Of a stretch of 64,000 bases of DNA, positions 17,069-50,078 are shown in pieces; position 1 is the stretch's first letter; the number at the start of each line of letters is the position of its first letter. Both the position numbers and the translations under genes were made by a program. The stretch comes from an uncultured Candidatus Competibacteraceae bacterium (GTDB taxonomy: Bacteria > Bacteroidota > Bacteroidia > CAIKAF01). The stretch covers positions 222,110 through 286,109 of the forward strand of contig CAZOEO010000001.1 of assembly GCA_964578885.1 (NCBI GenBank), in the 5' to 3' direction. The notes under the pieces are model-generated. The model ran no database searches. It saw only the letters and a list, made by a program, of their open reading frames with translations, and was not told the origin of the DNA.

Positions 17069-17092
17069 TGGTGTATTGTGGGTAAACTAAAA

Positions 17093-17120
17093 GGCAGGGT
17101 ATGTCCGTACCCTGTCTGTC
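17093..17120 (+). terminator. rho-independent-like hairpin (GGCAGGGTA-tgtccg-TACCCTGTC) after the rimK operon
   Basis: 9-bp stem with one G-U pair, 24 nt after the stop, followed by a T-rich stretch. Confidence 0.5.
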
Positions 17121-17345
17121 TTCCAATGTATAATATTTCAATATAATAAAAATTATTTTTTGTTTATAACAATGTATTGTTGATATCTAGTTATTTGTTA
17201 TTCAATACTTTAATTGTTTCATACAATGGTTTTGAGTAAATAATGAGGTAAAATATTTCATTTTTGTTGTTTGGGGTGAAACAATTTATATCTTCGTTAT
17301 GGTTAAAACTAATAACCATTAAGAACCCCATTTAGAACCCATCGT
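17121..17345 (+). promoter_or_regulatory. extremely AT-rich upstream region of the beta-helix/giant-repeat locus (putative strong promoter/UP region)
   Basis: Roughly 80% A+T over about 225 bp, with several TAnnTTTG-like Bacteroidota -7 elements (for example TATTTTTTG, TTTTTGTTG) immediately upstream of the first locus gene. Confidence 0.4.
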
Positions 17346-18434
17346 ATGAAGAACATATTTACCTCGCTAGGCTTGGTCTTGGGGTTAATGTTATCACCTA
17401 CATTGGCGCTCAATGCAACGATATGGAGGGTTAATAATACTCCGGGAATTAATGCGTCTTTTTCAGATTTGACCACAGCGATTTCCGGTGCATCGGTAGA
17501 TGATACGCTCTATGTGGAAGGAAGTCTTACCTCTTATGGTGCTATTTTACTTAATAAGCGCTTAACTATCATTGGTCCGGGATATCTTTTAGGAGTAAAC
17601 GATACCACCATGGCGTTTCAACAGGCGGCCACTTTATCTTCTTTACGTGTAACCGCTGCCGGATCAACCGTTATGGGGTTGTATATCAACAATACCGCTA
17701 CTACGCCTGTATTTGCGCTTTCCATTGAGGCCAGTAATGTGACCATGCTTAGGAATTATATCCGCAAAGGCTCCAACAGTGCATCAGGCGATGTGATTCA
17801 GATTTCTTCCGGTCTCACTGGAGTTTCTATCGCCCAAAATTTGGTTGAGAATGTTGGGACGTCCCTGTCTTTTACTTTCCGTGGCATCAATTTTCTTGGC
17901 GCTGGTATCAATTGCATTATTTCCAACAACATTATTTTAACAGGCGCTTCAGACTTGAATGGAGGTTCCATGAGTGGGGATGCCCTGGTCTTGTCAGCTG
18001 GGGGAGCTTATCGGGTCAATTATAACACGATACGCGGAAATTGCTCTTTTTTCAACGCCCAGGTTTCTGGAAATATTTTGATTAGGGGACTTATTACAAC
18101 CAGTCCTGCCAGTCCAAATATTATTCAAAATAATTTGTCTAATCAATCACAGTTTGGCACAGCTCAGGGGAATATCGCCTTAGTGGATATGACCACGGGT
18201 GTTTTTGCCATGACGGGTTTGGCAAATGAGGATCGATATTATCGACTTGTCCCGGGTTCGGTAGCCATTTCCGCAGGTCCGAACGGTTCGAACGCAGGCG
18301 CCTATGGTGGTTTTACACCGTATGTAAGGTCCGGAATGCCTCCCATTCCTTCCATTTTTGCGGCTTCTATCCCAGGGGCAGCCAATACGGCAACGGGAGT
18401 GCCTGTAAACCAGAGTTCCATTTCACGCAACTAA
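17346..18434 (+). CDS. secreted parallel beta-helix (PbH1) repeat protein with a C-terminal YFWD-module-like tail; paralog 1 of 4
   Basis: Signal peptide, conserved WRVNN...DTLYVEGS..SYG...GPGY.L..ND(S/T)T N-cap, and repeated I.xN.I PbH1 strands (VSIAQNLVEN, IISNNIILTG). The C-terminus (YYRL.P...G...YGGF.PYVRSGMPPIPSIF...) resembles one module of the giant protein. Confidence 0.55.
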   Translation: MKNIFTSLGLVLGLMLSPTLALNATIWRVNNTPGINASFSDLTTAISGASVDDTLYVEGSLTSYGAILLNKRLTIIGPGYLLGVNDTTMAFQQAATLSSLRVTAAGSTVMGLYINNTATTPVFALSIEASNVTMLRNYIRKGSNSASGDVIQISSGLTGVSIAQNLVENVGTSLSFTFRGINFLGAGINCIISNNIILTGASDLNGGSMSGDALVLSAGGAYRVNYNTIRGNCSFFNAQVSGNILIRGLITTSPASPNIIQNNLSNQSQFGTAQGNIALVDMTTGVFAMTGLANEDRYYRLVPGSVAISAGPNGSNAGAYGGFTPYVRSGMPPIPSIFAASIPGAANTATGVPVNQSSISRN

Positions 18435-18457: not shown

Positions 18458-19570
18458 ATGAAACACCTCATCCGCTTTTCATTTATGGTGCTTATGCTGA
18501 GCCCATTGGCTGTATTCGCCGGCAAGTGGCGGGTCAATAACCAAACAGGTACCACTGCTAATTTTACGTCTGTAGCTACGGCTGTTGCAAGTGCATCCGT
18601 GTTAAATGGTGATACACTTTATATTGAAGGATCACCTACCTCTTATGGCTCTCTTTCTCTCACATCCAAGAGATTGACCTTTATTGGTCCTGGTTACCTT
18701 CTAACAGACAATGACTCTACTCAGGCTATTATTTATCCTGCCCGTTTCGATCAATTGAGCGTTTCCGGAGCTTCTGCAGATAATTCTGTGTTTTTAGGAT
18801 TGGTTTTCCAAAACACTACAGGTGGTACTACTTTGGTAACATTGGGCTCCAATGGTCTTACTTTTTCCCGTAATTATCTTTTTACCGGAACAAATGGAGG
18901 TAACTCATTTGGATCCGTTGGTATTTCGGTGACATCTGGTTTTAACAACATTACCATCAGCCAGAATTTCATCAATTTACAACTGACTGTAGCTTCTTTT
19001 AGCAATACTGGAATCAGCATTACAGGCACCAATACCAACCTTCTCATATCTAATAATCTAATTTTGGTTGGTCAGATGGATTTAACGTCAACTAATCCAA
19101 GTACCGCCAACGCCATCACCATGTCTAGCACCAGCGGTTCTGCTGTAGTTGCGAATAATGTGTTCAAAGGCAATTTGACCTTATATAATGCTCAGTTGTT
19201 CAGTAACATATGGATTGCTGGTACCTTTACAGTGAATGCTTCTTTCCCCAACGTATTGCAGAATAATATTTCTAACTCCACCCAGTTTGGTTCTACCAAC
19301 GGAAACCAGCAGAACATAACCATGACCAACGTATTTGCTCAAACTGGTTCGGTGGCGTCTTTGGATAAATTCTACACTTTAATTCCATCCACTTCTCCTG
19401 CGATTGGAACAGGAGTCGGCGGTAATGATTGCGGTATTTTTGGTGGAACGCTTCGCTATAAATTGAGTGGTTTACCTCCTTTTCCTGCGATTTGGTCTGC
19501 CACAGTTCCTCCAACAGGTTCAAGTGGGTCTAACCTGAACGTGAATGTGCGTGCACGTGCGCACAATTAA
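18458..19570 (+). CDS. secreted parallel beta-helix (PbH1) repeat protein; paralog 2 of 4
   Basis: Same architecture as 17346..18434. C-terminal tail FGGTLRYKLSGLPPFPAIWSATVPPTGSSGSNLNVNVRARAHN. Confidence 0.55.
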   Translation: MKHLIRFSFMVLMLSPLAVFAGKWRVNNQTGTTANFTSVATAVASASVLNGDTLYIEGSPTSYGSLSLTSKRLTFIGPGYLLTDNDSTQAIIYPARFDQLSVSGASADNSVFLGLVFQNTTGGTTLVTLGSNGLTFSRNYLFTGTNGGNSFGSVGISVTSGFNNITISQNFINLQLTVASFSNTGISITGTNTNLLISNNLILVGQMDLTSTNPSTANAITMSSTSGSAVVANNVFKGNLTLYNAQLFSNIWIAGTFTVNASFPNVLQNNISNSTQFGSTNGNQQNITMTNVFAQTGSVASLDKFYTLIPSTSPAIGTGVGGNDCGIFGGTLRYKLSGLPPFPAIWSATVPPTGSSGSNLNVNVRARAHN

Positions 19571-19623
19571 GCTGAGATTGTTTCATCCTTTTTAGTTCAA
19601 GAACCCGAATTTAAGCTATCGGT

Positions 19624-22600
19624 ATGCCCAAAAATACGCGACATTACCTGTGTGCGGCCGTGCTCATTGTGCTCATGAGTCTTATACCCATGGGTGCAGT
19701 ATTTGCGCAGGTCTCCAACGTGCAGGCTGGCGAATATTTTTGGGATACCGATCCGGGTTTTGGTGCGGGTACGGCTATTTCTGGCATTACTCCGGGCGTT
19801 AGTTTGTCACAAACATTCGCTCCTCCTTTGTCTTCTTTGACACCGGGCATGCACACTCTCTTTGTCCGTTTTAGAAATGCAAATGGGCATTGGAGTACAA
19901 CCCACCGTTGGCCAGTTTATATATTAAGTTTACCATCCACCGTTCCTAACATCTCTCAAGGCGAATATTTTTGGGATATAGACCCCGGATATGGTTCAGG
20001 AACGCCTATTAGTTCATTTTCTGGCGCGTCTTCTGTTTCTTCTTCCATTGCAGTTCCGCTCTCCGGTCTTACTCCCGGGCTCCATGTGTTGTATCTTCGT
20101 TCGCGTGCCAATCCGGGGAATTGGGGCCAAACACATGGTTTTCCTGTATTGGTGCTCCCCACACCATCGCTCCCTAATGTATCTCGTTTAGAATATTTCT
20201 GGGACAACGACCCCGGATTTGGCAATGGGACATTGGTTCCAGGTTTTACAGCTGGAACCGCACCACAAACCATTTCGGCGTTGGTGCTCTCTTCTCTTTC
20301 TCCGGGTATTCATACCCTAATGGTACGGGGAAAAGACAGTAATGGGAAGTGGAGCCAAACCTATGTTTATCCGGTGGTGATTTCCAATATTCCTTCCACA
20401 GCCCTGCATGTCAATCAATTAGAATATTTTTGGAATACAGATCCCGGCGTGGGAAATGGAACTGCTGTAACGTCCTTTACCAGTGCGGTTTCTGTTACTC
20501 CTTCTGTTGCTGTTCCCCTATCTGGTTTATCTGCGGGTATGAATACCTTATTTTTCCGCGGAAGAAACGCCAATGGGCAATGGGGGATTACGCATCGTTT
20601 CCCCGTTTTTGTGGCTACCGCAGCCAGTTCAACCACCGTAAATGCGTATGAGTATTTTTGGGATACCGATCCTGGATTCGGAGCCGGCACCTCTGTGACT
20701 TCTTTTTCTGCATCGGGTTCAGTGAATCAAAGTTTTGCCATTTCATTGAATGGTCTTTCCCCAGGTTTGCATACCCTTTATTTGCGTGCGAAAGGCCCTG
20801 GAGCCCTTTACGGTCAGACCCATGCTTATCCGGTATTGGTACAACCGGATGCGACGCTACCTACCGTTACCCGGATAGAATATTTTTGGGATACCGATCC
20901 CGGATTTGGATTAGGAACATTAATTCCTGGATTTTCCGCTGGTTTAACACCTTCGGTAGCTGCTTCTGCTTTAAATCTTACGTCCCTTACCTCAGGTATT
21001 CACACACTGAATGTAAGAAGCCGAGATGCGAATGGCCGTTGGAGTCAGACTTACACTTATCCTGTGGTGGTTACAAACTTTAATGTTTCGCCATCTCAAA
21101 TTACTGCCATTGAATCTTTTTGGGATGTAGATCCCGGCATGGGAAATGGAACTGCGGTGACTGGTTTTACGCCTGGAACCACGGTATCTGCCATTTCTTC
21201 GTTGCCGCTTAATGGCCTGACTTCTGGCATGCATACTTTGTTTTTCCGCGGAAGGAATGCAGATGGGCACTGGGGGATTACCCAGCGTTTTCCTGTTTTT
21301 GTAACAAGTATACCTGCCACAAGTCCCGTAGCTTCGTTTGAGTATTTTTGGAATACGGATCCCGGTTTTGGTGCGGCGACTCAGGTGTCTGGTTTTTCTC
21401 CAGCCAATGCGGTGAATCATACTTTTGCCATTCCATTAACGGGACTTTCTGCCGGCATCCAAACTTTACATATTCGTTCGCGCAATAGTGCTGGAACTCC
21501 CGGACAGACCTATGCATTTCCGGTGTATGTAACGCCTGTGTTAACCCTTCCACAACTCACCAAGCTTGAGTATTGGTGGGATACGGATCCCGGATATGGA
21601 TCTGCGACGCCAGTTCCCGGATTTGCGGCTGGGGTTACACCATCTGTTACCGCTGCGTTGCCTTTGGGAAATCTTTCCCCCGGTATTCACACTTTAGGGG
21701 TAAGGGGTCAGGATCAACAAGGACGTTGGAGTGTGGTGCACACTTACAATGTGGTGATTTCCAATGTAAGTTCTCCAGCATCTAACATTACACAGGTTGA
21801 ATATTTTTGGGATGTGGATCCTGGATTTGGCGCAGGTACACCCATGACAGGTTTTTCTGCCGGAACCAGTGTGCAGGCGGTATCAGCCATTCCATTAGGG
21901 ACTTTGGTTCCGGGGACGCATGTGTTGTTTACACGGGCAAAAAGTGCAGATGGAGATTGGAGTATCACCCATCGTTTTTCTGTGTTTGTGTCTTCTCCAC
22001 CTCCTCCGCCAACTCCCGGACTTGCACAAATTGAATATTTCTGGGATACAGATCCTGGATACGGTAATGGTGTTTCTGTTCCTGTGGCGCCGAATGCGTC
22101 GGTGAACACCAACCTTGTTGTTTCTTTAAGTGGTTTAACTCCAGGCGTGCATGTACTTGGGATGCGGGCTCAGGATACCAATGGTGTTTGGGGGATAACA
22201 CATCCTCATGCGGTCTATGTGCTTCCCGATTTGGCAGTGACCAATGTATCCCGTTTAGAATATTTTTGGGATACAGATCCTGGATTTGGTGCTGGAACCG
22301 CTTTACCTGGTTTGGTTGCTGCGCCTACCGCTTCTGTGGTACATGGTATATCGTTATCTGCTTTAACTCAGGGCATTCATTCTCTCACAATAAGGGGGCA
22401 AAGTTCCAGCGGAAAGTGGAGTGTTTCTCACACTTATGGTGTTGTGGTTCTTCCTCCTTCATCTGTTGCGTCAAATATTGTTGCGGCAGAATATTTTTGG
22501 GATATAGATCCCGGATTTGGTGCCGGTACGCCTGTCTCTGGAATTACAGCAGGTCCGTCCATTGCTCCAGTTTTGAGTTTGCCTTTAGGTTCGCTCACTC

Positions 22601-25600
22601 CCGGCATGCATACTTTATTTGTACGTGGCAGAGATGCCAATGGCGGTTGGAGTACAACCCATCGTTTCCCAGTATTTGTACAGCAATTAAGTACCTTAAG
22701 TCCTGTTACGCAGTTTGAATATTTTTGGGATACCGATCCCGGGTATGGTCTGGGAACGGTTATTTCTGGCTTCCCTCCCGCCAACAATGTGGGACAAAAC
22801 TTAGTGGTACCTGTATCTGGCTTACAGCCTGGCGTGCATGTGTTGCATTTTAGAGCGACGAATCAGGACGCGTTAACAGGGCAGACTTATGCTTTCCCGG
22901 TTTGGATAACGCCTGCATTCACCCTACCCGATGTAACACGGTTGGAATATTTCTGGGATGCAGATCCCGGGATTGGGCAGGGAACTTCCGTAACGATTTC
23001 TTCTTCGAATGATATAACCGCAGTGGCAGCGCTTCCACTTTCCGGCTTGAATACAGGAATTCACACCCTGGCTGTTCGTGCTCAGGACAATCGTGGGGCA
23101 TGGAGTGTATCCCATACGTACTCAGTGGTTATTTTAGACCTTTCTGGGCTTTCGAATATTACCGCGGTAGAATATTTTTGGGATACAGATCCAGGATATG
23201 GTTCCGGGACAGCGATTACAGGATTTTCTTCCGGGACAACGGTGCAGGCTGTCGCTTCTGTTGCTTTAGGAAGTTTGGTTCCAGGGCCCCATGTATTTTT
23301 TGTTCGTGCCCGTGATGCCAAAGGAGGATGGAGTACCACGCATCGTTTTTCCGTTTTTGTTTCCAATCCACCGCCACCGCCCGTGCCTGGTTTAGCTCAA
23401 TTGGAGTATTTCTGGGATACCGATCCGGGTTATGGAAATGGCACAGGTGTGGCTTTAGCGCCCAATTCACAATCCAACACGAACATAGCGGTTTCTACTT
23501 CGGGACTCGCGCCTGGTATTCATGTACTTGGTATGCGCGCTCAGGATACCAATGGTGTTTGGGGGATAACCCATCCGCATCCGGTGTACATGTTGCCTGC
23601 CTTTCAATTGTCCGATGTAACGCGCGTAGAATATTTCTGGAATGCGGATCCCGGTTATGGAAACGCCACTGCGCTTTCTGGAATTACCCCATCTGCCTCG
23701 GTTTCTGTTTCTCAGGCGATTTCCATGAGTGGATTGAGTCAGGGATTAAATTATTTGACGGTTCGCTCTCGTGACACACAGGGTAAATGGTCTGTGGCAC
23801 ATACTTATGGAGTGCTTTTAACTAATTTTCCAATAACTCTTCCGGACATTACGTCTGTGGAATATTTTTGGAATACCGATCCCGGGTTTGGTCAGGGAAC
23901 ACCGGTTAGTGGATTTGTGCAGGGGACGCAGATTACACATGCTTTTAATATACCATTGAACAGTTTAAGCAATGGTATTAATACTTTGTTTGTAAGAGGT
24001 CGGAATGCGCTGGGAGAATGGAGTACGACGCATCGTTTCCCTGTTTTGGTAGCAGCTCCTCAGATTTCTGCGCCTGTAAGTCAGTTTGAATATTTCTGGG
24101 ACACCGATCCTGGTTTTGGAAATGGTAGCATTATTAGTGGTTTTACGCCAGGATTATTGGCCAATCAAAATATTGCGGTGTCATTGGGTGCACTGTCACC
24201 TGGAGTACACGTTTTAGGTGTAAGGTCCGCTGACACGTTGAACCAGTGGGGAATAACCCATACTTTTCCAGTGTATGTGACACCTCCGCTCACGTTAGAT
24301 CAGGTTATTCGTGTTGAATATTACTGGGATACGGATCCCGGGTTTGGTGCAGGAAATGCCTTGTCGGGATTCAGTCCGAACACCGAAGTTTCGGCGACGC
24401 AAGCCATTTCTCTTTCCGGTTTAACGCAGGGAATTCACAGTTTGGTGGTTCGTTCCAAGTCTTTAGGGGGACAGTGGAGCGTGTCTCATCAGTTTAGTGT
24501 ATTGGTTACCAATCTTCCGTCTTCACCATATGCCGTAGATGCACTGGAATATTTCTGGAATACGGATCCGGGAATAGGGAATGCTACAGCGGTTGCGGGC
24601 TTCACGGCGGGTACGCAGGTTTCGCATGTCTTTAATATACCAACCAGTGCGTTGAATACGGGTATGAATACCTTGTTTGTGCGGGGGCGGAACAGCAATG
24701 GAGATTGGGGTATTGTGCATCGTTATCCTGTGTTTATTACCAGTATTCAGTCTGCTGCGCCCATTGCATCTTTGGAATATTTCTGGGATAATGATCCGGG
24801 AATAGGCAATGCGACCACGGTGTCTGGATTTAGTTTAGCGGGTAGTGTGAATCAGAACGTAGTGGTGCCTATGGCTTCACTTAGTCCAGGTGTGCATGTT
24901 TTGGGAATTCGTGCGGCAGACTCTACCCAGCTTTGGGGTATGACTCATACATTCCCGGTATATGTCACTCCTGACCTTACGTTGGACAATGTTGCGGCGA
25001 TTGAGTATTTCTGGGATACTGATCCCGGTTATGGAAATGCGACTAGTCTGAGTGGCATTGCCCCGGGCACTACGGTATCTAGTAGCCAGGCGCTGTCTCT
25101 TTCCGCTTTAAATCCGGGAATCCATTCTTTAATGGTTCGCTCTAAATCAGCGACTGGCAAATGGAGTGTGGCACATCAGTGGTCTGTTTTAATTATCAAT
25201 ACGCCTCCCTTACCTTATCAAGTCACTGCCATTGAATATTTCTGGAATACGGATCCTGGTTATGGAAATGGTGTAACGGTGTCCGGTCTCACTCCATCTA
25301 CCAGCGTGAGCCAGGTGTTGCCTATACCCATGACAGGATTAGCGAATGGTATGAATTCTTTGTTCATACGTGCTCAGAACGCCAATGGGGAATGGAGTAC
25401 TACGCATCGATTCCCCGTGTATGTGGTTTCCATTTCACAACCTACTCCTGTTGCCGCTTTTGAGTATTTCTGGGATACGGATCCCGGTTATGGAAACGGG
25501 ACCAATGTTTCAAGTTTTTCTCCCGCTGGAAGCGTCAATCAGAACATTGCCGTTTCGCTTCTTGGCGTAAATCCAGGATTAAAAACGTTATATATACGTA

Positions 25601-28600
25601 GCAAAGATTCCTTGAATGTTTGGGGTCAGACCTATGCGTTCCCGGTTTATATTACACCAGCTTTAACGTTACCACAGGTTAGTCAGATTGAGTATTTCTG
25701 GGATGTGGATCCCGGTTATGGAAATGCGACATCTTTAAGTGGTTTTACCGTAGGTACGGAAGTAACAGTTCCTTCTGCCATTTCAATTAGTCAATTACAA
25801 CCAGGTTTAAGGACGTTGACTGTACGTGCGAAGTCAAGTGATGGTACATGGTCTGTCGCACATAGTTTTCAGGCGTTAATTTCCAACGTAGCACCCACCT
25901 TATCTCCCATTACGGCCATTGAATATTTTTGGGATACGGATCCCGGTATTGGTAATGCATCGCCCATTACAGCATTTGTTTCTTCTGACACGGTCAATAC
26001 GCAGGTGGCTGTTCCGGTAGGCTCCTTGCCGGTAGGCTCTCATGTGTTATTTATTCGAGCCAAAAATGCGCAAGGGCATTGGGGACTTACGCATCGTTGG
26101 TCTATATCTATTACGGCGCCACCCATTCCTCTTCCTGCAGCTATTTCCAGTTTTGAATATTTCTGGAATACTGATCCGGGATTGGGTAATGCAACAACGG
26201 TTTCCAGTTTTACACAAGGCATAGATGTGAATCATAGTTTTGCTGTGCCTTTATCCGGATTAAATGCGGGCCTAAATACCCTTGTTTTACGGGCGATTGA
26301 TACGACAGGAAAGGTGGGACATAGCTATCCAATGCCAATTTTTATCGTTCCGTCGCAAACTGTGAGCAATTTAACCCAGGTTGAGTATTTCTGGGATACG
26401 GATCCTGGATTTGGAAATGGAACTGCTTTAACTGGTTTTCTGCCGGCCGCGGAAATCAGCGTAAACCATGGTATTTCCCTCGCCTCTGTAACGCCTGGTA
26501 TTCATACGTTAACGGTTCGCGGAAAAGATCAGTTGGGTCGTTGGAGCGTTTCACATACTTACAGCGTTATTATTACCAATAATTTGAATCCGGCGCCAGA
26601 TGTAACGGCCATCGAATATTTCTGGAATACAGATCCAGGTATTGGCAATGGAACGAATGTGCCGGTAACGTCTCCAGGCATTCAGGTGACGCAGGTGTTC
26701 AATATTCCTTTAAATGCGTTGAATGCAGGTACGAATACTTTATTTATTCGTTCAAAAAACCAGCAAGGGGCCTGGAGTATTACTCATCGCTTCCCTGTTT
26801 TCATTACAGCGCCCGTCGCCTTGGCACCCGTACAAAGACTTGAATATTTCTGGGATACAGATCCAGGGTATGGGAATGGCGTTGCTGTAACCGGATTTTC
26901 TGCGGGTCAGTCTATCAATCAGAACGTGGCCATTTCATTGGCCTCGGTAAATCCAGGTTTACGCGTCTTACACTTCCGCGCTCAGGATACTACTGGAAAG
27001 TGGGGTCACACCTATCCTTATCCGGTGTACATTACACCAAATCTGGCGCTTTCTAATGTGAACCGGGTAGAATACTTCTGGGATGTAGATCCTGGTTATG
27101 GAAACGGAACAGCGATTTCCGGCATTTCTCCGAATACCGAAATTTCCACCAGTCAGGCTCTTCCTCTTTCTGGTTTGACTCCAGGAATTCATACACTTAC
27201 TGTTCGGGCCAGGTCTAACGAAGGTCGCTGGAGCGTGGCACATACATATGCGGTGATTGTTTCCAACATGCCAGCTCAGTTAGAAAACATCACAGCCATC
27301 GAGTATTTCTGGAATACCGATCCAGGTATGGGGAATGCCACTTCGTTCACTGGATTTTCTCCGGCTACTCAAATTAGTCAAAACATGGTGATTCCTGTTT
27401 CTGGATTAAATCAGGGCATGAACACTCTTTTCATTCGGTCGAAATCATTGTCTGGGCAGTGGAGTATTACCCATCGTTATCCGGTTTATGTAGGTGGTCT
27501 TTCAACGGCAGCTCCCATTACCGCATTTGAATATTTTTGGAATACCGACCCTGGATATGGCAATGGTGCGCCCGTTACCGGTTTCACATTGGCCAATGAT
27601 GTAAATCATAGCTTTTTGGTTCCGCTTTCTGGAGTGAATACCGGATTAAATACTTTGCATATTAGGGCGATTGACAGTACTACCCGTTATGGACAAACCT
27701 ATGCCTTCCCCGTGTATATGGTTCCTAACCCGACGTTACCGAATTTAACCCGATTGGAATATTATTGGGATACGGATCCGGGCTTTGGTAATGGTACCGC
27801 TATTACTGGTTACACTCCGGGTAACGAGGTAACGGCTGCAGCAGCTTTGACCCTGTCTTCTTTGAATCCGGGAATTCACACGTTGGCTGTAAGGGGTCGC
27901 GATGCTCAAGGACGTTGGAGTGTGACCCATACATTCGGAGTTGTCGTTTCCAACTTTAATCTTCCAGCTCCTAATATCACTGCCATTGAGTATTTCTGGG
28001 ATACGGATCCAGGTATTGGCAATGGTACAGCTGTTACCAGCTTTACTCCTTCGGATACGGTGAGTACGCAGGTAGCCATTCCTTTGACCATTGCTGCAGG
28101 TCCTCACGTGCTGTTCATTCGCGCTAAAAACGCTCTTGGACATTGGAGCATTACCCATCGTTTCGCCGTCAACGTAACGCTTCCGCCTGTTCCACCTCCT
28201 GCACCAATCGCCAGGTTTGAATACTTCTGGGATACGGATCCCGGACTGGGCAATGCCACGTCGGTTACTGGATTTGCAAATGCAGAACAGGTGAATTATT
28301 CCTTTGCGGTGCCAATGACCGGACTAAATGCGGGATTGCATACGTTAGTCCTTCGGGCCATCGACTCTACAAATAAGGTGGGCCATAGTTATCCCATGCC
28401 CGTGTTTATTGTTCCACCAACTAATTTGGTGAATATCGACCGTTTGGAGTATTTCTGGGATAATGATCCTGGATATGGAAATGGATCAGCCGTTGTCGGA
28501 TTTGTTCCAGGTGATACCGTAACAGCCATTCAAGCCATTCCGATGCAAAACCTGACCCCGGGCTTCCATACCCTAACGGTGAGGTCCAGGACTTCGGATG

Positions 28601-31600
28601 GTCGTTGGAGTGTGGCGCATTCATACACTATTTTTGTAACGACAGATCCGAATCCGTCCAACATTACACGCATTGAATATTTCTGGAATACGGATCCCGG
28701 TATGGGTAATGGGGTGAATGTTCCTGGCGTAGTGGCCGGATCATTGGTGAATCAGGTCTTCTCTGTGAATTTGTCTGGGTTGTCTCAAGGCGTGAATACC
28801 TTGTTTGTGAGGAGCATGAATGCCAAGGGCAATTATAGTATAACCCACAGGTATCCTGTATTTGTTGGTCAGTCTGGCAATGCGCCCATTAGCAGGTTTG
28901 AATATTTTTGGGATACCGACCCCGGATTTGGCGCAGGCACCCAAGTGACCAGTTTCTTACCAGCGACGAACGTAAATCAGAATATTGCCATTCCATTAAC
29001 CAACCTGAATCCGGGTGTGCGTACCTTATTTGTGCGCAGTGCGGATACCTTGGGGCGTTGGGGCGGCACGTATGCTTATCCGGTGTATTTAGTTCCGGCT
29101 TCCGCCTTGCCACAGGTGAGTCGTTTGGAATATTTTTGGAACACAGATCCCGGATTTGGAAATGCTACCGCCATTGGTGGGCTTGCTGCCTCAGCTCAAG
29201 TGATCGGTACTACAGCTATTTCTTTGTCAGGCCTACCTGTGGGAGTAAATTATTTGAACATTAGAGCGAAGGATGCCGATGGTCGGTGGTCTGCTACCCA
29301 TAATTTCAACGTGGTGGTCGTGCCCATTGGAAATGGAGGAGATGTAACAGCCCTTGAATATTTCTGGGATACTGACCCTGGAAAAGGTAATGCCAATGCC
29401 GTGACCAACTTTACCGCTTCCGCTTCCGTAACACATTCGTTCCCTGTAAGCATGAGTGGTCTGTCTCAGGGATTGCATCTGCTGTATGTGAGAGGTAAAA
29501 ACCAATCCGGAGATTGGGGTATCACGCATCGTTTCCCTGTCTTTGTGGCCGATCCAAACCAAGGTGGCGGTGCGCCCATAACCAGATATGAATATTTCTG
29601 GGATACAGATCCTGGTATGGGGTCGGCTACCCAGGTAACTGGTTTTGCAACAGGTACTTCTACCAATCATTCTTTTAATATTGCATTATCGGGTCTTACC
29701 CCTGGTTTAAGAACCTTGCATGTTCGCCCTGCCGATTCACTTGGACGCTGGGGTATTACCCATGCCTATCCGGTGTATGTGATGCCAGATCCTACTTTGC
29801 CGAACATTACGCGCATGGAATATTTCTGGGATGCAGATCCTGGCATTGGAAACGCTACTGCCATTTCTATTACGCCAGGGCAAACCGCTTCCGGCACGTT
29901 AGCTATTCCATTGAGCAGTTTGGCTACTGGATTGCATACCCTTTCGGTTCGTTCACGCGATGCGCAGGGGCGCTGGTCCGTTACGCACACTTGGTCAGTC
30001 ATTATTACTAACCTTGACGCCTCGCCGCAGCCCATTACAGCAGTTGAATATTTCTGGAATACCGATCCAGGTATGGGCAATGCTACGGCACTTACCTCAT
30101 TTGCCCCGGCTACATCTGTAAGTCCATCTTTCGCTATTCCGGTGGGTAACCTTCCTTCCGGCCTTCAGACCTTATTTATTCGTGCGAAAAACCAATCTGG
30201 CGCATGGAGTATAACCCATCGTTTCCCTGTATTGGTGCAATCTGCGAATGCATTGGCTTCAGCACCTATCCAACGATTCGAATACTTTATCGATACCGAT
30301 CCCGGATATGGAGCAGCTACTCAGGTGTCCACTTTCTCTCCTGCCTCACAGGTGAATCAGAACATTTTGATTCCGCTTTCCGGATTGGCAGAAGGAATCA
30401 GGAACATTGGCATCAGGGCCATGGATACGCTTGGTCGTTGGGGACAAACATACCAGTATCCGGTCTATTTACTCAATACGGCCACCAGCCAGGTAGCTGC
30501 GCTCGAGTATTACTGGGATACCGATCCAGGTTTTGGTTCAGCAACGGCCATTCCTGTTTCTCCATCTACAGAAGTCTCTACCACGCAAGCTTTACCATTG
30601 TCCAACCTCAATACAGGAATGCATAACCTTACAGTAAGGGCGAAAAGCAATACGGGTCGTTGGAGTGTTTCTCACCATTACCCTGTATTTGTTATCGACC
30701 AATCTCTTTTACCGGATACCGTTACCCAGGTTGAATATTTCTTTGACGTAGATCCCGGTATGGGGCAGGCATCCAGCATTTCCGGAATCACGCCGGGCAT
30801 CAACGTAGACGGTGTATTCCCCATTCCTTTAAACAATCTGGCTCAGGGATTACATCAGATATTTATCCGTGCGAAAAACCGCAGCGGGCATTGGGGTATC
30901 ACACACCGCTTCCCGGTGTATATTCTCAATCAGCAGGTTACACCTGAGGTGGTGGCTGCGGAATACTTTATTGATACGGATCCGGGATTTGGTGCAGCTA
31001 CTCCAGTACCTGCGTTTGCCAGTGCTACGGATGTAAATCTGAACCTAGCCGTTTCTCTTTCCAACCTGAGTCAGGGCATTCACCGGCTCTATGTCCGTAC
31101 CCAAGATAACAGTGGTGTTTGGGGTCATACCTTCAATGAGATTTTCACTTTGATGAATATTCCAGCTACGCCTGTACCGCTTGCCAAGGGAGAATATTTC
31201 TGGGATGTAGACCCAGGCTTTAACAATGGTACCAACATTCCTGGCGTTACATCGGCCGTACTCAACAGCTTATCTTTTACCATTCCAGCGCCACCCGCGG
31301 CTCCGGGTGTACATACGCTTTACACACGTTATCAGGACACTTTAGGTCGTTGGGGACATACCCATGCAGAAATGATGATTGTGTATCCGGGTCCAGATAC
31401 TGTGCGTAACCTTGTGGGTCTTGAGTACTTTATTGATACAGATCCCGGTTTAGGTCAGGCCACCTTTGTTCCGTTTACCACGCCCTCTCCGCAGGTAACC
31501 GAAGTCGTGAATCTCCCGATCTGTGGATTGGCTTCCGGTAACTACACTTTATATGTTCGGGTAAAAGATGAAGATGGACGCTATGGCCAGACCTATGCCC

Positions 31601-33279
31601 ATGCGATGTCGGTGACCAATAATGGTGGCAGTCTGCCTATTTCTTTAAGTCAGAATGGCCCCATCTGTACTGGCGACACGCTTTCTCTCCTTGTTACACA
31701 CGCCACATTCTCCAGTCCGGCCATTACCTACACTTGGACTGGTCCTAATGGATTTAACCAGACGGTATCTAATCCTTCACTGTTCAATGCCCAAGCCTCG
31801 GCATCCGGTATGTACACAGTGACTGTTACGAATCCGCTGATTAACTGTTCTGGTGTAGATTCCATCATGGTCTTAGTGAGTTCAGGTGCACCTGCACCGG
31901 TGGTACTTTCTCCGGATACCATTTGTAATGGCGCCAATGTATTGCTTACTGCCTTTAACACAAACACTTCACAGTTCTACTGGTGGGATGCAGCTTCCGG
32001 AGGAAATATTATTGACTCCGGCTCTACTTTCGTGTCGCAGGCTTTTGTAAACAACACGATGGCATATGAGCAGAAATTATTCTATGTTTCTGCCAACGAC
32101 ACTGTTGGTTGCAGCGGAAGCAGAACCACCGCCACAGTGCTTGTACGACCTTTGCCTGGTTCCGCCCTGAATCAGAATGTGGTTTATCAGGCCCAGGGAA
32201 CTACCCTGCCCGTGAATGCCAATAATTGTATTATTGTAAGTCCTGACCAATGGGTGCAATTTGTGGATGGAAATAACGCATTGATTGCTTCGGTAAAAGA
32301 GCCTTCCGGAAGTTCAAACCTTGGTGCCACGCAAGCTACAGCCACTTTAGTAGAAACCAATGTGGCCGTATTAAACGGAAAACCTTTCCTTCCTAAAGTA
32401 TTTACCATTACGCCGGCTAGTCAGCCTGGTCCCAATGATACGGTTTCCGTTCGCTTGTATTTTACCCAGGAAGATTTCGACTCTTTGAATTTTATGGCCG
32501 GAGGTGGTTTCACCATGAACGAGCTTCAGGTGCGTAAGTATTCTGCTAATCTTACTGGGTCGCAAGTGCTGAACCCTGCGGCTTCCGGCTTTGCACCTGT
32601 GATGATAGATACAAGCAAGATTACGGTTCTCGATTCAATGGTCACCGGATTGTCCAATGTATTTGCCTTGCAGTTCCCTCTAACCAGCTTCTCTACTTTC
32701 TTTATCGAATTCAACGACAATCCAACGCCATTGCCGGTTACATTAACCGAGTGGGAGGCCAATTGCGATCCAAAAGGTATTCGTTTGGACTGGACTACCC
32801 AATCTGAATTAAATAACCAAGCCTTTTTTGTGGATCGGAGTTTAGATGGAGAAGAGTGGTCTCGTATTGCCACTATTCCAGGCGCTGGAAACTCTAATGT
32901 GGTGAAACACTATTCTCATGTAGATGGATTCTCTTATCCAGGTTGGGTTTACTATCGCTTGACCCAACAGGATTTCGACGGAACCACTGAAGTATTCTAT
33001 CCGGTGTCTGCTTTCTGTGACGGTGCAGAAACAGGTGTATGGGCCAATGCATCTCCCAACCCAACTTTTGGCAAATCCACCATTTCTCATGGGTTTGGAA
33101 AGGCTGGTGTAAGGTGGGAATTAATGGACGTAAGTGGGCGGATTCTACAACGTGGGGTAGATCATAACGAAGGATTTAACATCGACTTGAACGCTGCCGC
33201 TCCCGGTACTTATGTACTCCGCCTTGAGGGTGTTTTGGTACAGGAAACCATTTCATTACGAATCATAAAAGCGCAATAA
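19624..33279 (+). CDS. giant (4551 aa) tandem-repeat cell-surface protein with a T9SS C-terminal sorting domain
   Basis: Single uninterrupted ORF. Signal peptide, then about 42 copies of a roughly 95-aa module (EYFWDTDPGxGxGT...PLSGLxxGxHTLxVRxR...GxWSxTHRFPVxV). After that come about 500 aa of Ig-like domains (ICxG...YxWxGPNG...GxYTVTVT...C motifs). It ends in a typical roughly 80-aa T9SS sorting domain (...RWELMDVSGRILQRG...GTYVLRLEG...). Confidence 0.85.
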   Translation: MPKNTRHYLCAAVLIVLMSLIPMGAVFAQVSNVQAGEYFWDTDPGFGAGTAISGITPGVSLSQTFAPPLSSLTPGMHTLFVRFRNANGHWSTTHRWPVYILSLPSTVPNISQGEYFWDIDPGYGSGTPISSFSGASSVSSSIAVPLSGLTPGLHVLYLRSRANPGNWGQTHGFPVLVLPTPSLPNVSRLEYFWDNDPGFGNGTLVPGFTAGTAPQTISALVLSSLSPGIHTLMVRGKDSNGKWSQTYVYPVVISNIPSTALHVNQLEYFWNTDPGVGNGTAVTSFTSAVSVTPSVAVPLSGLSAGMNTLFFRGRNANGQWGITHRFPVFVATAASSTTVNAYEYFWDTDPGFGAGTSVTSFSASGSVNQSFAISLNGLSPGLHTLYLRAKGPGALYGQTHAYPVLVQPDATLPTVTRIEYFWDTDPGFGLGTLIPGFSAGLTPSVAASALNLTSLTSGIHTLNVRSRDANGRWSQTYTYPVVVTNFNVSPSQITAIESFWDVDPGMGNGTAVTGFTPGTTVSAISSLPLNGLTSGMHTLFFRGRNADGHWGITQRFPVFVTSIPATSPVASFEYFWNTDPGFGAATQVSGFSPANAVNHTFAIPLTGLSAGIQTLHIRSRNSAGTPGQTYAFPVYVTPVLTLPQLTKLEYWWDTDPGYGSATPVPGFAAGVTPSVTAALPLGNLSPGIHTLGVRGQDQQGRWSVVHTYNVVISNVSSPASNITQVEYFWDVDPGFGAGTPMTGFSAGTSVQAVSAIPLGTLVPGTHVLFTRAKSADGDWSITHRFSVFVSSPPPPPTPGLAQIEYFWDTDPGYGNGVSVPVAPNASVNTNLVVSLSGLTPGVHVLGMRAQDTNGVWGITHPHAVYVLPDLAVTNVSRLEYFWDTDPGFGAGTALPGLVAAPTASVVHGISLSALTQGIHSLTIRGQSSSGKWSVSHTYGVVVLPPSSVASNIVAAEYFWDIDPGFGAGTPVSGITAGPSIAPVLSLPLGSLTPGMHTLFVRGRDANGGWSTTHRFPVFVQQLSTLSPVTQFEYFWDTDPGYGLGTVISGFPPANNVGQNLVVPVSGLQPGVHVLHFRATNQDALTGQTYAFPVWITPAFTLPDVTRLEYFWDADPGIGQGTSVTISSSNDITAVAALPLSGLNTGIHTLAVRAQDNRGAWSVSHTYSVVILDLSGLSNITAVEYFWDTDPGYGSGTAITGFSSGTTVQAVASVALGSLVPGPHVFFVRARDAKGGWSTTHRFSVFVSNPPPPPVPGLAQLEYFWDTDPGYGNGTGVALAPNSQSNTNIAVSTSGLAPGIHVLGMRAQDTNGVWGITHPHPVYMLPAFQLSDVTRVEYFWNADPGYGNATALSGITPSASVSVSQAISMSGLSQGLNYLTVRSRDTQGKWSVAHTYGVLLTNFPITLPDITSVEYFWNTDPGFGQGTPVSGFVQGTQITHAFNIPLNSLSNGINTLFVRGRNALGEWSTTHRFPVLVAAPQISAPVSQFEYFWDTDPGFGNGSIISGFTPGLLANQNIAVSLGALSPGVHVLGVRSADTLNQWGITHTFPVYVTPPLTLDQVIRVEYYWDTDPGFGAGNALSGFSPNTEVSATQAISLSGLTQGIHSLVVRSKSLGGQWSVSHQFSVLVTNLPSSPYAVDALEYFWNTDPGIGNATAVAGFTAGTQVSHVFNIPTSALNTGMNTLFVRGRNSNGDWGIVHRYPVFITSIQSAAPIASLEYFWDNDPGIGNATTVSGFSLAGSVNQNVVVPMASLSPGVHVLGIRAADSTQLWGMTHTFPVYVTPDLTLDNVAAIEYFWDTDPGYGNATSLSGIAPGTTVSSSQALSLSALNPGIHSLMVRSKSATGKWSVAHQWSVLIINTPPLPYQVTAIEYFWNTDPGYGNGVTVSGLTPSTSVSQVLPIPMTGLANGMNSLFIRAQNANGEWSTTHRFPVYVVSISQPTPVAAFEYFWDTDPGYGNGTNVSSFSPAGSVNQNIAVSLLGVNPGLKTLYIRSKDSLNVWGQTYAFPVYITPALTLPQVSQIEYFWDVDPGYGNATSLSGFTVGTEVTVPSAISISQLQPGLRTLTVRAKSSDGTWSVAHSFQALISNVAPTLSPITAIEYFWDTDPGIGNASPITAFVSSDTVNTQVAVPVGSLPVGSHVLFIRAKNAQGHWGLTHRWSISITAPPIPLPAAISSFEYFWNTDPGLGNATTVSSFTQGIDVNHSFAVPLSGLNAGLNTLVLRAIDTTGKVGHSYPMPIFIVPSQTVSNLTQVEYFWDTDPGFGNGTALTGFLPAAEISVNHGISLASVTPGIHTLTVRGKDQLGRWSVSHTYSVIITNNLNPAPDVTAIEYFWNTDPGIGNGTNVPVTSPGIQVTQVFNIPLNALNAGTNTLFIRSKNQQGAWSITHRFPVFITAPVALAPVQRLEYFWDTDPGYGNGVAVTGFSAGQSINQNVAISLASVNPGLRVLHFRAQDTTGKWGHTYPYPVYITPNLALSNVNRVEYFWDVDPGYGNGTAISGISPNTEISTSQALPLSGLTPGIHTLTVRARSNEGRWSVAHTYAVIVSNMPAQLENITAIEYFWNTDPGMGNATSFTGFSPATQISQNMVIPVSGLNQGMNTLFIRSKSLSGQWSITHRYPVYVGGLSTAAPITAFEYFWNTDPGYGNGAPVTGFTLANDVNHSFLVPLSGVNTGLNTLHIRAIDSTTRYGQTYAFPVYMVPNPTLPNLTRLEYYWDTDPGFGNGTAITGYTPGNEVTAAAALTLSSLNPGIHTLAVRGRDAQGRWSVTHTFGVVVSNFNLPAPNITAIEYFWDTDPGIGNGTAVTSFTPSDTVSTQVAIPLTIAAGPHVLFIRAKNALGHWSITHRFAVNVTLPPVPPPAPIARFEYFWDTDPGLGNATSVTGFANAEQVNYSFAVPMTGLNAGLHTLVLRAIDSTNKVGHSYPMPVFIVPPTNLVNIDRLEYFWDNDPGYGNGSAVVGFVPGDTVTAIQAIPMQNLTPGFHTLTVRSRTSDGRWSVAHSYTIFVTTDPNPSNITRIEYFWNTDPGMGNGVNVPGVVAGSLVNQVFSVNLSGLSQGVNTLFVRSMNAKGNYSITHRYPVFVGQSGNAPISRFEYFWDTDPGFGAGTQVTSFLPATNVNQNIAIPLTNLNPGVRTLFVRSADTLGRWGGTYAYPVYLVPASALPQVSRLEYFWNTDPGFGNATAIGGLAASAQVIGTTAISLSGLPVGVNYLNIRAKDADGRWSATHNFNVVVVPIGNGGDVTALEYFWDTDPGKGNANAVTNFTASASVTHSFPVSMSGLSQGLHLLYVRGKNQSGDWGITHRFPVFVADPNQGGGAPITRYEYFWDTDPGMGSATQVTGFATGTSTNHSFNIALSGLTPGLRTLHVRPADSLGRWGITHAYPVYVMPDPTLPNITRMEYFWDADPGIGNATAISITPGQTASGTLAIPLSSLATGLHTLSVRSRDAQGRWSVTHTWSVIITNLDASPQPITAVEYFWNTDPGMGNATALTSFAPATSVSPSFAIPVGNLPSGLQTLFIRAKNQSGAWSITHRFPVLVQSANALASAPIQRFEYFIDTDPGYGAATQVSTFSPASQVNQNILIPLSGLAEGIRNIGIRAMDTLGRWGQTYQYPVYLLNTATSQVAALEYYWDTDPGFGSATAIPVSPSTEVSTTQALPLSNLNTGMHNLTVRAKSNTGRWSVSHHYPVFVIDQSLLPDTVTQVEYFFDVDPGMGQASSISGITPGINVDGVFPIPLNNLAQGLHQIFIRAKNRSGHWGITHRFPVYILNQQVTPEVVAAEYFIDTDPGFGAATPVPAFASATDVNLNLAVSLSNLSQGIHRLYVRTQDNSGVWGHTFNEIFTLMNIPATPVPLAKGEYFWDVDPGFNNGTNIPGVTSAVLNSLSFTIPAPPAAPGVHTLYTRYQDTLGRWGHTHAEMMIVYPGPDTVRNLVGLEYFIDTDPGLGQATFVPFTTPSPQVTEVVNLPICGLASGNYTLYVRVKDEDGRYGQTYAHAMSVTNNGGSLPISLSQNGPICTGDTLSLLVTHATFSSPAITYTWTGPNGFNQTVSNPSLFNAQASASGMYTVTVTNPLINCSGVDSIMVLVSSGAPAPVVLSPDTICNGANVLLTAFNTNTSQFYWWDAASGGNIIDSGSTFVSQAFVNNTMAYEQKLFYVSANDTVGCSGSRTTATVLVRPLPGSALNQNVVYQAQGTTLPVNANNCIIVSPDQWVQFVDGNNALIASVKEPSGSSNLGATQATATLVETNVAVLNGKPFLPKVFTITPASQPGPNDTVSVRLYFTQEDFDSLNFMAGGGFTMNELQVRKYSANLTGSQVLNPAASGFAPVMIDTSKITVLDSMVTGLSNVFALQFPLTSFSTFFIEFNDNPTPLPVTLTEWEANCDPKGIRLDWTTQSELNNQAFFVDRSLDGEEWSRIATIPGAGNSNVVKHYSHVDGFSYPGWVYYRLTQQDFDGTTEVFYPVSAFCDGAETGVWANASPNPTFGKSTISHGFGKAGVRWELMDVSGRILQRGVDHNEGFNIDLNAAAPGTYVLRLEGVLVQETISLRIIKAQ
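19720..31620 (+). repeat. intragenic tandem repeat array with a roughly 285-bp period (about 42 copies; about 14 super-repeats of about 855 bp, each made of three diverged subtypes)
   Basis: A roughly 25-nt core (gaatatttctgggatacngatccngg) recurs about every 285 bp. The encoded modules cycle HWSTTHRFPVFV to WGQTYAFPVYVTP to RWSVxHTYxVVISN. Confidence 0.85.
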
Positions 33280-33371
33280 CCATGGAAGTGAATCACTTTT
33301 CCGCTAAAAATATCGGATCTTCTGAGAAGAGCCGCTTTTTCAAACTTCAATTATCACGTCAAACAACAGTT

Positions 33372-34484
33372 ATGAAACACGTTTTCCTTTTGCTGTGCGT
33401 AGCAGGCTCATTGGCTACCGCACACGGCGCCATCCGGCGCGTGAACAACAGGCCGGGCACCGGTGCTGCTCATGCAGACATTACCTCTGCCATCACCGCG
33501 GCCGTTGCGGTGGTAGATACCATCATCGTGGAAGGCTCGCCCACGGCATATGCGGCTTTTAACCTGAACAAGCAACTGGTTATCCTGGGACCTGGTTATT
33601 TCCTGACCGACAACGACTCCACTCAGGCTTATACCCAGCCCGCCACCATCAACTCGGCTTCCACCATTTCCACGGCAGGTTGTACTGTAAGTGGTTTGGT
33701 TTTTAGCTACAACACTGGAGGTAGCACTACACCCATGTTGCAAATCAGTGCGAACAATGTGACCATCGCCAGAAATTACTTTTATGATACTTGGACTTCC
33801 ACCGGAAACTCCAACTGTATTCAGGTGGCTTCCGGTATCACAGGTGTCACCATCGCTCAGAACTTTATCCGTTGCGAGCAAACCAACCAATCTGGCTGGG
33901 GACTCATTTATATCCCTGGTACCGGTAACACCAACCTGGTTATTACTAACAATATTCTGGTTGCTGGTTCCGCCAACACCACGGAGGCCACTCACCGTAA
34001 TGCCATTTGGGTGACCAATACCGCCAACCAGGGAGGTATCCTTTTTGCCAATAACCTCATCTTAGGTAACGTTCAGTCTTACAATTGCACTTTCGTGAAT
34101 AACATCTGGGGGCGTGGCACATTCATTAACACGCCTGTAGGTAATGTAGGTCGCAACAACGTTTTATCCGGAACGCAGTTCACCGGTCAGATTGTTTATA
34201 CAGATCCTACGGCTGTAAACTTGAACAACCAGGCCATGGCCGGAACCATGTTCGCTCAAACAGGTGGTAACGGTGCCATTGACAAGTTTTGGAAACTGGC
34301 AGGTGCCTCTTCTGCCCTCACCGCAGGTATCAATTCCAGCGAAGCCGGCCCATTTGGTGGTCCAGCCAGCTACATATTATCCGGCCTGCCTGCTATTCCC
34401 GTTGTATGGTTCGGTTCTGTACCTACTTCTGGAAACACAAGCTCTACATTGAGCGTCACTTTCCGCGCACGTACCATCAATTAA
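33372..34484 (+). CDS. secreted parallel beta-helix (PbH1) repeat protein; paralog 3 of 4
   Basis: Start chosen at the signal-peptide Met (MKHVFLLLCVAGSLATAHG); the ORF opens at 33282, 2 nt after the giant gene's stop. PbH1 strands VTIARNYFYD, VTIAQNFIRC and VITNNILVAG. Tail FGGPASYILSGLPAIPVVWFGSVPTSGNTSSTLSVTFRARTIN. Confidence 0.55.
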   Translation: MKHVFLLLCVAGSLATAHGAIRRVNNRPGTGAAHADITSAITAAVAVVDTIIVEGSPTAYAAFNLNKQLVILGPGYFLTDNDSTQAYTQPATINSASTISTAGCTVSGLVFSYNTGGSTTPMLQISANNVTIARNYFYDTWTSTGNSNCIQVASGITGVTIAQNFIRCEQTNQSGWGLIYIPGTGNTNLVITNNILVAGSANTTEATHRNAIWVTNTANQGGILFANNLILGNVQSYNCTFVNNIWGRGTFINTPVGNVGRNNVLSGTQFTGQIVYTDPTAVNLNNQAMAGTMFAQTGGNGAIDKFWKLAGASSALTAGINSSEAGPFGGPASYILSGLPAIPVVWFGSVPTSGNTSSTLSVTFRARTIN

Positions 34485-35738: not shown

Positions 35739-35775
35739 AAACCGGCTTCCCGACGTGAGGAGCCGGTTTTTTTTT
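35739..35775 (+). terminator. rho-independent terminator (CCGGCTTCC...GGAGCCGG followed by T9)
   Basis: Hairpin plus a run of nine T, 20 nt after the stop of the last locus gene. Confidence 0.7.
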
Positions 35776-50043: not shown

Positions 50044-50078
50044 ACAATAAAATATAACGGGCATGGATGAAACTTATT

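Follow-up and report, generated by a model that had tools for sequence, protein, structure and literature searches.

We analysed a 64,000-nucleotide stretch of DNA from an uncultured bacterium of the Bacteroidota (GenBank assembly GCA_964578885.1, contig CAZOEO010000001.1, positions 222,110 to 286,109; hereafter the window), in which one giant gene lies among four paralogous genes termed par1 to par4. The giant coding sequence (19624..33279, + strand) is a single open reading frame (ORF) without internal stop and encodes a protein of 4551 aa, with a computed mature mass of ~481 kDa and a pI of ~5.6. Read by eye, its N-terminus, MPKNTRHYLCAAVLIVLMSLIPMGAVFA|QVSNV..., has the n-h-c layout typical of a putative Sec signal peptide (aa 1–28, 19624..19707, +), with predicted cleavage at VFA|Q. 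Gln at the +1 position agrees with the Q-rule of Bacteroidetes.

Most of the protein is a tandem array of small modules. The motif E-[YSW]-[FWY]-[WFI]-[DN]-x-D-P-G occurs 52 times at a spacing of 75–78 aa, and a hidden Markov model (HMM) of 76 positions built from the modules recovers the same 52 domains, at 81–111 bits each, end to end over aa 32–4004, which is 87% of the protein. The HMM was trained on these same 52 modules and its match to its own array is thus less informative than its matches elsewhere. Six positions are invariant across the 52 modules (E6, D12, P13, G14, G44 and R51) and five more are conserved in at least 90% of them (Y7, F8, W9, G16 and L48).

The modules cycle through three subtypes. 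Mean identity between modules is 0.49–0.50 at lags of 3, 6 and 9 modules and 0.38–0.40 at other lags, and the in-phase excess of 0.080 compares with 0.000 ± 0.0036 (maximum 0.018) in 2000 permutations of the module order. Average-linkage clustering, which uses no positional information, returned the order 132132... for modules 1–49 with zero exceptions and set modules 50–52 apart. The array can therefore be written as 16 strict A-B-C super-repeats of 227–231 aa each (modules 1–48, 19717..30717, +), one extra A-type module (module 49, 30718..30945, +) and three divergent terminal modules outside the A/B/C clusters (modules 50–52, also found as HMM domains; 30946..31638, +). Super-repeats are 40–63% identical to one another (mean 49%). 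The closest module pairs are 10–11 versus 16–17 (71–73%) and 28–29 versus 37–38 (65–68%), suggesting that some of the array's growth occurred by duplication of larger blocks. Taken together, the sequences indicate that the array arose by amplification of a three-module unit and that each module was conserved individually thereafter.

The array is free of cysteine up to module 52, which carries the first Cys after the signal peptide. Two Ig-like domains that contain Cys and belong to the Ig_7 / CHU_C-associated type come next (31657..32157, +), identified with Pfam and with phmmer against the PDB; the Pfam Ig_7 match covers aa 4091–4176 (E 9e-14) and a weaker Ig match aa 4006–4074. They are followed by a C-proximal region without Pfam match (aa ~4179–4476, 32158..33051, +); by eye, its segment PVTLTEWEANC... 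recurs before the sorting domain of shorter module proteins from Chitinophagaceae (loci L018, L021 and L036, see below). The protein ends in a type A C-terminal sorting domain of the type IX secretion system (T9SS; aa 4477–4549, 33052..33270, +), which scores 33.8 bits with TIGR04183 (cut-off 23) and 30.6 bits with PF18962 (cut-off 27). Thus, the giant protein carries the sequence signature of a type A T9SS cargo. Neither the SprB repeat (PF13573) nor a type B / CHU_C sorting domain was found anywhere in the protein with Pfam and NCBIfam at E≤1.

An initial annotation, made by a model from the letters of the window, had already described one uninterrupted ORF, a signal peptide, modules without spacer in a strict three-subtype cycle, an ancestral three-module unit that was amplified, and a T9SS cargo with an Ig-like and a sorting domain at its C-terminus, and in all of this we concur, the signal peptide being judged by eye. 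Its figures need revision: the array holds 52 modules rather than ~42, each of 75–78 rather than ~95 aa, in 16 super-repeats of ~229 aa (681–693 nt), plus one A and three divergent modules, rather than ~14 of ~285 aa, and the modules are 46–48% identical within and 38–40% between subtypes rather than 50–60%. The EYFWDTDPG block, described there as invariant, is so at E, D, P and G, whereas Y, F, W and the next G are conserved at 90% or more. Overall, the initial observation is borne out in part, and so is its interpretation. The four flanking par paralogues, which the initial annotation did not mention, are in our judgement the most informative part of the context.

The par genes lie on the same strand as the giant gene, two on each side. 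Upstream are par1 (17346..18434; 362 aa, predicted to be secreted on account of its signal-peptide-like N-terminus) and par2 (18458..19570; 370 aa); downstream are par3 (33282..34484; a 400-aa ORF whose likely start, ATG at 33372, gives 370 aa beginning with a signal peptide) and par4 (34523..35719; 398 aa). Consecutive genes of the five are separated by 23, 53, 2 (or 92, with the later start) and 38 nt. After par4, RNA folding finds a terminator-like hairpin with a run of nine T (35739..35775, +; -21.7 kcal/mol, z -3.6), and none of 200 shuffles was as stable. The same five genes are present in two orthologous contigs from environmental metagenomes, L001 and L002: par1 is kept in both, par4 is found in L001, and par2 and par3 are each 90% identical to their L002 orthologues. 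The spacing and the hairpin give an operon-like layout, and the giant gene and the four par genes are probably co-transcribed as one unit. Scans for sigma-70-type promoters and terminators performed no better than on shuffles, and the Bacteroidetes motif TAnnTTTG is absent from every intergenic gap of the unit. Upstream of par1 lies a 277-nt AT-rich intergenic region (17069–17345), with a terminator-like hairpin, listed on the minus strand, just past the preceding AstE-like gene (17095–17114).

The four par proteins are 36–40% identical to one another and share a signal peptide, asparagine-rich repeats resembling a parallel beta-helix, and a C-terminal block GGxxxYxLSGLPPxPxxW...R.R..N. They match nothing in Pfam (E up to 10), in NCBIfam or among PDB sequences, and five homologues likewise match nothing in Pfam. 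A precomputed PF22842 flag on a few homologues was not reproduced when these were rescanned with Pfam. Homologues fall into at least 388 clusters and nearly all are named 'hypothetical', one source giving 'right-handed parallel beta-helix repeat-containing protein'.

A motif for O-glycosylation in Bacteroidota, D-[ST]-[AILVMT], is present 23 times in the giant protein against 13.9 ± 3.6 in shuffles, a mild enrichment that is suggestive only; 11 of the 23 sit at one loop, around module position 53 before G-x-W, mainly in subtype B. An N-D-[ST]-T block is present in all par proteins, and its D-[ST]-T also agrees with the motif.

How old is the array, and is its length stable? At the DNA level, Tandem Repeats Finder, run on 19000–34000 of the window, reported no array and just a trivial 15-nt repeat; identity between codon-aligned modules is 55% in phase, compared with 49% out of phase; and the longest exact repeats within the giant gene are 30–39 nt, with none of 40 nt or more. 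The conserved core, given in the initial annotation as 25 nt every 285 bp, is a 27-nt stretch encoding EYFWDTDPG that recurs every 225–234 nt with a mean pairwise identity of 81%, all 52 copies being different. Slipped or homologous recombination would thus have scarcely any substrate to act on.

Close relatives of the giant protein were found in other assemblies (P0008 from NCBI/JGI, P0159 from ENA and P0160 from Logan). P0160 (4554 aa) aligns end to end with the window protein at 84% identity with three single-residue gaps, and P0008, P0160 and the window protein each have 52 colinear modules. P0159 is truncated at its N-terminus and has 48 modules, three more being encoded in a separate upstream ORF of contig L001. 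On that contig (~9195–10010 and 9806–22675) a break near the 5' end of the giant ORF separates 3 modules from the other 49, and the upstream par2 is fragmented; either the sequence is in error here or the strain truly carries a frameshift. Compared with L002, the window gene has a dN of 0.108 with saturated synonymous differences (pS 0.74), and orthologue identity per module, ~0.82 over the first ten modules, rises to ~0.88 over the last twelve. Between orthologous modules, the positions at which paralogous modules differ freely are 60–99% conserved, which argues that modules are kept individually, with no sign of homogenisation. The equal module counts in diverged orthologues, together with a dN far below the saturated dS, indicate that the array is old, under selection and stable in copy number. 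The initial annotation had likewise taken the array to be old and maintained; its further suggestion that the gene is prone to copy-number change is contradicted by the equal counts and by how short the exact DNA repeats are.

What is the module? The initial annotation could not assign it to a named family and proposed a small beta-sandwich. The predicted fold agrees, since it superposes on solved domains of the Ig/FN3/E-set class. A Foldseek search with a three-module model gave SiiE of Salmonella enterica as the best match (E 2.7e-4), with a TM score of SiiE to a single module of 0.52–0.56. The module is thus predicted to be an Ig/FN3-like small beta-sandwich domain. At the sequence level, no single module attains any gathering score in Pfam-A 2025 or NCBIfam 20.0, and on the giant protein NCBIfam recognises the sorting domain and nothing else. 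The whole protein does pass the Pfam-A sequence threshold of Y_Y_Y (PF07495; E 2e-43, 146 bits). This total is the sum of ~50 weak matches, the best stretch of which covers only positions 35–55 of the 65 in the profile. When modules were scanned singly, 11 of 52 matched Y_Y_Y (best E 7.6e-4), leaving 41 without, and 5 of 52 matched PKD. Ten other proteins with these modules behave alike, with summed partial matches to Y_Y_Y, GbpA_D3 or Big_13 and zero qualifying stretches.

We therefore rejected the identity of the module with Y_Y_Y, as no individual domain both aligns to the greater part of the 65 profile positions and exceeds the gathering score. Y_Y_Y, an Ig-like domain known from hybrid two-component sensors of Bacteroides, shares with the module an Ig-like fold and the stretch G-x-[HY]-x-L-x-V-[RK]-x-x-D-x-x-G-x-W-S, whereas it has no alignment to the first two thirds of the module, where the defining EYFWDTDPGxGxG block lies. 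The structure of a Y_Y_Y-containing sensor (4a2m) ranked only 26th in the Foldseek search (E 0.69). Searched against PDB sequences, the module profile found nothing below E 0.29, and its motif strings left no trace in the searchable literature, where only dTDP-glucose papers were returned. By sequence, then, neither Pfam-A nor NCBIfam offers a curated model of the module, which shares only the short motif GxHxLxVRxxDxxGxWS of its C-terminal part with Y_Y_Y-like families.

The module is not peculiar to this protein. An exhaustive search of 1.84 billion cluster representatives with the module profile matched 10,680 proteins at E≤1e-3, of which 2,827 reach E≤1e-30; it had to be run without a word index, since a word-indexed search with the 77-aa profile gave only 7 fragments. 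The total score rises with the number of modules, the window lineage reaching 5080 bits and the next proteins at most 2265. Among the matches listed, the window lineage has the most modules (52), followed by proteins with 41, 38, 36 and 31, and most carry 6–10. Members typically have a signal peptide followed at once by module 1; many end in Por_Secre_tail, with Ig_7, PKD, FN3 or cadherin-like domains ahead of it, and some in dockerin-like segments. All ten members whose annotation was looked up are unnamed or 'hypothetical protein'. Judged by the profile matches, the modules represent a very large extracellular domain family of the Bacteroidota/FCB, with the motif EYFxDxDPGxGxG ... GxHxLxVRxxDxxGxWS.

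Super-repeats of several modules are found elsewhere in this family. P0010/P0161, with 36 modules (locus L047, 6001–15207), has an even sharper period of three (identity 0.66–0.71 in phase versus 0.39 out of phase), and P0009 has a local period of two modules. A shared ancestral triplet, in which A, B and C of the window would correspond to the subtypes of P0010, was not supported, all cross-identities being 0.32–0.38. From their sequences, the multi-module super-repeats of the two lineages appear to be independent in origin, though they may have a common source that divergence has obscured.

The link between par and the module extends well beyond the window. We scanned for par with the par alignment alone, taking one genome per species, and obtained 44 loci from Bacteroidales, Chitinophagaceae, Prolixibacteraceae, Muribaculaceae and Flavobacteriaceae, as metagenome-assembled genomes (MAGs) or isolates, and from one MAG labelled Chloroherpeton. 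At 42 of the 44, a plus-strand ORF with 1–7 EYFxDxDPG modules, usually 3–5, starts within ~320 nt downstream; one of the two exceptions stops at a contig edge. The window has the same arrangement of a par gene directly upstream on the same strand, par2 ending 53 nt before the giant gene. When neighbouring ORFs were clustered, only the par and module families were common across loci. The converse also largely holds: at five loci taken from module proteins chosen by score, par was upstream in four, namely five par genes directly upstream of 36 modules (L047), a par fragment at the contig edge beside 41 modules (L048) and one par gene each at L049 and L051, with no detectable par gene at L050. 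At the locus of P0020, a 338-aa gene without Pfam match lies 19 nt upstream of the module gene.

The short par and module cassettes of Bacteroidales, Chitinophagaceae and others thus match the window in their two families, in gene order and in strand, and differ from it in scale: they have one par gene and usually 3–7 modules, whereas the window has four par genes and 52 modules in a three-subtype super-repeat. The number of par copies looks higher beside the long arrays examined (four in the window, five at L047), the short ones mostly having one. Short cassette proteins have a signal peptide and 3–4 modules, and the two that were scanned (L003 and L018) both carry Por_Secre_tail. Regulators of AraC type, LuxR type and hybrid kinase type recur within lineages only. 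Examples upstream of short cassettes are a hybrid histidine kinase with an AraC-type helix-turn-helix (HTH; L003, 7348–9528), a TPR protein with an AraC-type domain (L011, 2489–4513) and a LuxR-type response regulator (L021, 4760–5506); they have no counterpart adjoining the unit of the window.

Two known giant surface proteins help to place the window protein. GhpA of Aureispira sp. CCB-QB1 (PDB 9flp) is a T9SS substrate of 5898 aa. Its stem, built of 52 Ig-like repeats with inter-domain disulfides, makes up a heptameric appendage 240 nm long that is used to catch the flagella of prey; PorP and PorE homologues follow its gene in the ghp cluster (bioRxiv 10.1101/2024.01.29.577165). Like GhpA, the window protein is by its sequence a giant Bacteroidota T9SS substrate with a putative signal peptide, a C-terminal sorting domain, 52 tandem Ig-like repeats and homologous Ig_7-type domains: with phmmer, its two C-proximal Ig-like domains match PDB chain 9flp_A repeatedly over query residues 13–179 (summed E 8e-94). 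In contrast to GhpA, its shaft modules belong to a different, Cys-free family whose profile does not match the GhpA sequence at E≤10, it lacks an N-terminal hook, its Ig_7-type domains are only two and lie at the C-terminal end, its sorting domain fits the type A model, and its neighbours are par genes rather than PorP/PorE homologues. The likeness is therefore one of kind, not of membership. SiiE (53 BIg domains; PDB 2yn3, 2yn5) is similar in having some 50 small Ig-like domains in tandem that build a long surface fibre, whereas it is a type I secretion substrate of Proteobacteria whose BIg domains carry Ca2+ sites at their junctions; it has no sequence relationship to the modules, with 12–21% identity in structural alignments. 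We conclude that the giant gene belongs, as an extreme case, to the already known giant T9SS surface proteins with Ig repeats. It is made of a widespread domain and is linked to a second family, par, and neither of the two is modelled in the curated libraries searched.

How might such a protein function? We propose, with a probability of about 60%, that the five-gene unit encodes a T9SS-anchored fibre or adhesin of ~0.2 µm with the par proteins as accessory partners. The giant protein would cross the inner membrane via Sec, fold in the periplasm without disulfides, then cross the outer membrane via the T9SS by means of its type A C-terminal domain and presumably stay attached to the cell surface by its C-terminal end. 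Type A cargo of Porphyromonas and Flavobacterium is known to be attached in this way. The shaft of 52 Ig-like domains would project outward with module 1 outermost and, by analogy with GhpA (240 nm, 52 repeats) and SiiE (53 domains), would measure roughly 0.2 µm. Tandem domains tend to keep adjacent copies dissimilar, which avoids misfolding. We infer that the alternating subtypes, with neighbours ~39–40% and modules three apart ~50% identical, help a long array to fold without inter-domain misfolding; this would account for the amplification of multi-module units, not single modules, in at least two lineages. The four par proteins may act as accessory partners of the fibre in assembly, decoration or ligand binding. 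We favour such a structural or assembly role for par, the main alternative being that of a beta-helix enzyme acting with the fibre.

Several points weigh against an anchored fibre with par partners. Expression, export and surface location of the protein are predictions from sequence; the window holds no T9SS machinery gene; no promoter motif was found upstream of par1; and no adhesive or tip domain is recognisable in the giant protein, in which module 1 comes directly after the signal peptide. The par proteins lack a T9SS sorting domain, which makes their route to the surface a difficulty, and the three-module model has a pTM of 0.52, so that inter-domain geometry is uncertain and rigidity and length can be gauged only by analogy. 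An enzymatic par would suit a surface complex for the capture and processing of glycans, in which the modules would be binders resembling carbohydrate-binding modules (CBMs) and par would be beta-helix glycan-active enzymes of the lyase or hydrolase type. The beta-helix-like repeats of par and the name of one homologue as a right-handed parallel beta-helix repeat protein point this way, as do the module proteins that end in dockerin-like segments or adjoin a Dockerin_1 protein, the weak single-module matches to CBM-like and GbpA_D3 models, and the AraC and hybrid two-component regulators upstream of short cassettes in some lineages. However, Pfam, NCBIfam and PDB sequences tie par to no enzyme family, no polysaccharide-utilisation genes (SusC/D, glycoside hydrolases) occur among the neighbours scanned around the locus, and a CBM array of 52 tandem binding modules would lack precedent; we therefore regard a glycan complex as unlikely.

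Rather less probable still is that several copies of the giant protein bundle, as in GhpA, into a rigid hollow stalk that catches other cells. Size class, secretion route and the repeat number of 52 all agree with the GhpA stem, to whose repeats the two C-proximal Ig domains are homologous, but the module profile misses GhpA, the hook region is lacking, the array is Cys-free, unlike the GhpA stem with its inter-domain disulfides, and the genes downstream are par paralogues. SprB of Flavobacterium johnsoniae, a mobile adhesin of gliding motility, offers another parallel, being a very large repetitive T9SS surface protein encoded together with accessory genes, in the sprCDBF operon. The window protein is likewise a giant repetitive T9SS substrate encoded among accessory genes in a Bacteroidota genome, yet it has neither the PF13573 repeat nor a CHU_C/type B domain, its sorting domain is of type A, and no SprF/PorP-type gene adjoins it, which makes a role in driving gliding improbable, more so than the bundled stalk. 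That the array length or reading frame is not real, through an assembly artefact or a decaying pseudogene, is very improbable. Long repeats are open to mis-assembly and the ORF of L001 is split; against this, repeat DNA that is only 49–55% identical and has no exact repeat of 40 nt or more makes collapse unlikely, the independent assemblies of P0008 and P0160 have 52 modules colinear with the window, and dN is far below the saturated dS.

Returning to the anchored fibre and its partners, a more far-reaching version can be put forward as speculation: par and EYFxDxDPG-module proteins might constitute a previously unrecognised two-component surface appendage of the Bacteroidota/FCB, in which the beta-helix par proteins dock on particular module subtypes, so that the strictly periodic A-B-C shaft, with four par paralogues in the window or five at L047, gives a regularly decorated hetero-oligomeric fibre, and in which par, despite lacking a sorting domain, rides the T9SS cargo to the surface. 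We think this unlikely.

Giant T9SS surface proteins influence attachment, gliding and predation in Bacteroidota, and very few have been characterised. The module domain occurs in more than 10,000 protein clusters without a Pfam-A or NCBIfam model, so that its proteins are labelled 'hypothetical' or receive spurious summed Y_Y_Y matches; its near-obligate neighbour par has no curated model either, and the two together offer a concrete two-gene unit for experiment. The module-by-module subtype order kept across diverged relatives, together with a non-matching three-module period elsewhere, provides a clean natural case on the avoidance of misfolding and recombination.

The remainder of the window offers further observations. 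An Rfam scan of the whole window returned nothing. Downstream of par4, on the other strand, lie lspA, a dksA-type gene and ileS. The IleS of the window is matched at 100% in Logan/ENA assemblies, and its best named relatives, every one a Bacteroidota MAG, are only 59–64% identical, in agreement with an uncultured Bacteroidota host. Two further T9SS cargo genes, at 47794–50064 (-) and 59213–61471 (+), encode a 756-aa protein, in which Por_Secre_tail is the only match, and an S8 subtilase with a PKD domain and also Por_Secre_tail. The gene at 56314–58209 (+) encodes a 631-aa protein that combines a His_kinase domain with propeller repeats of the two-component regulator type (Reg_prop), the class of sensor in which genuine Y_Y_Y is usual, and that at 6420–8852 (-) an 810-aa protein with CarboxypepD_reg-like and DUF5686 domains. 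Upstream of par1 (15214–17068, +), the genes for a RimK-type ATP-grasp ligase and an AstE/AspA-type deacylase share a 44-nt overlap; in the orthologous contig, these two genes are 96–97% identical, compared with 84–90% for the fibre locus.

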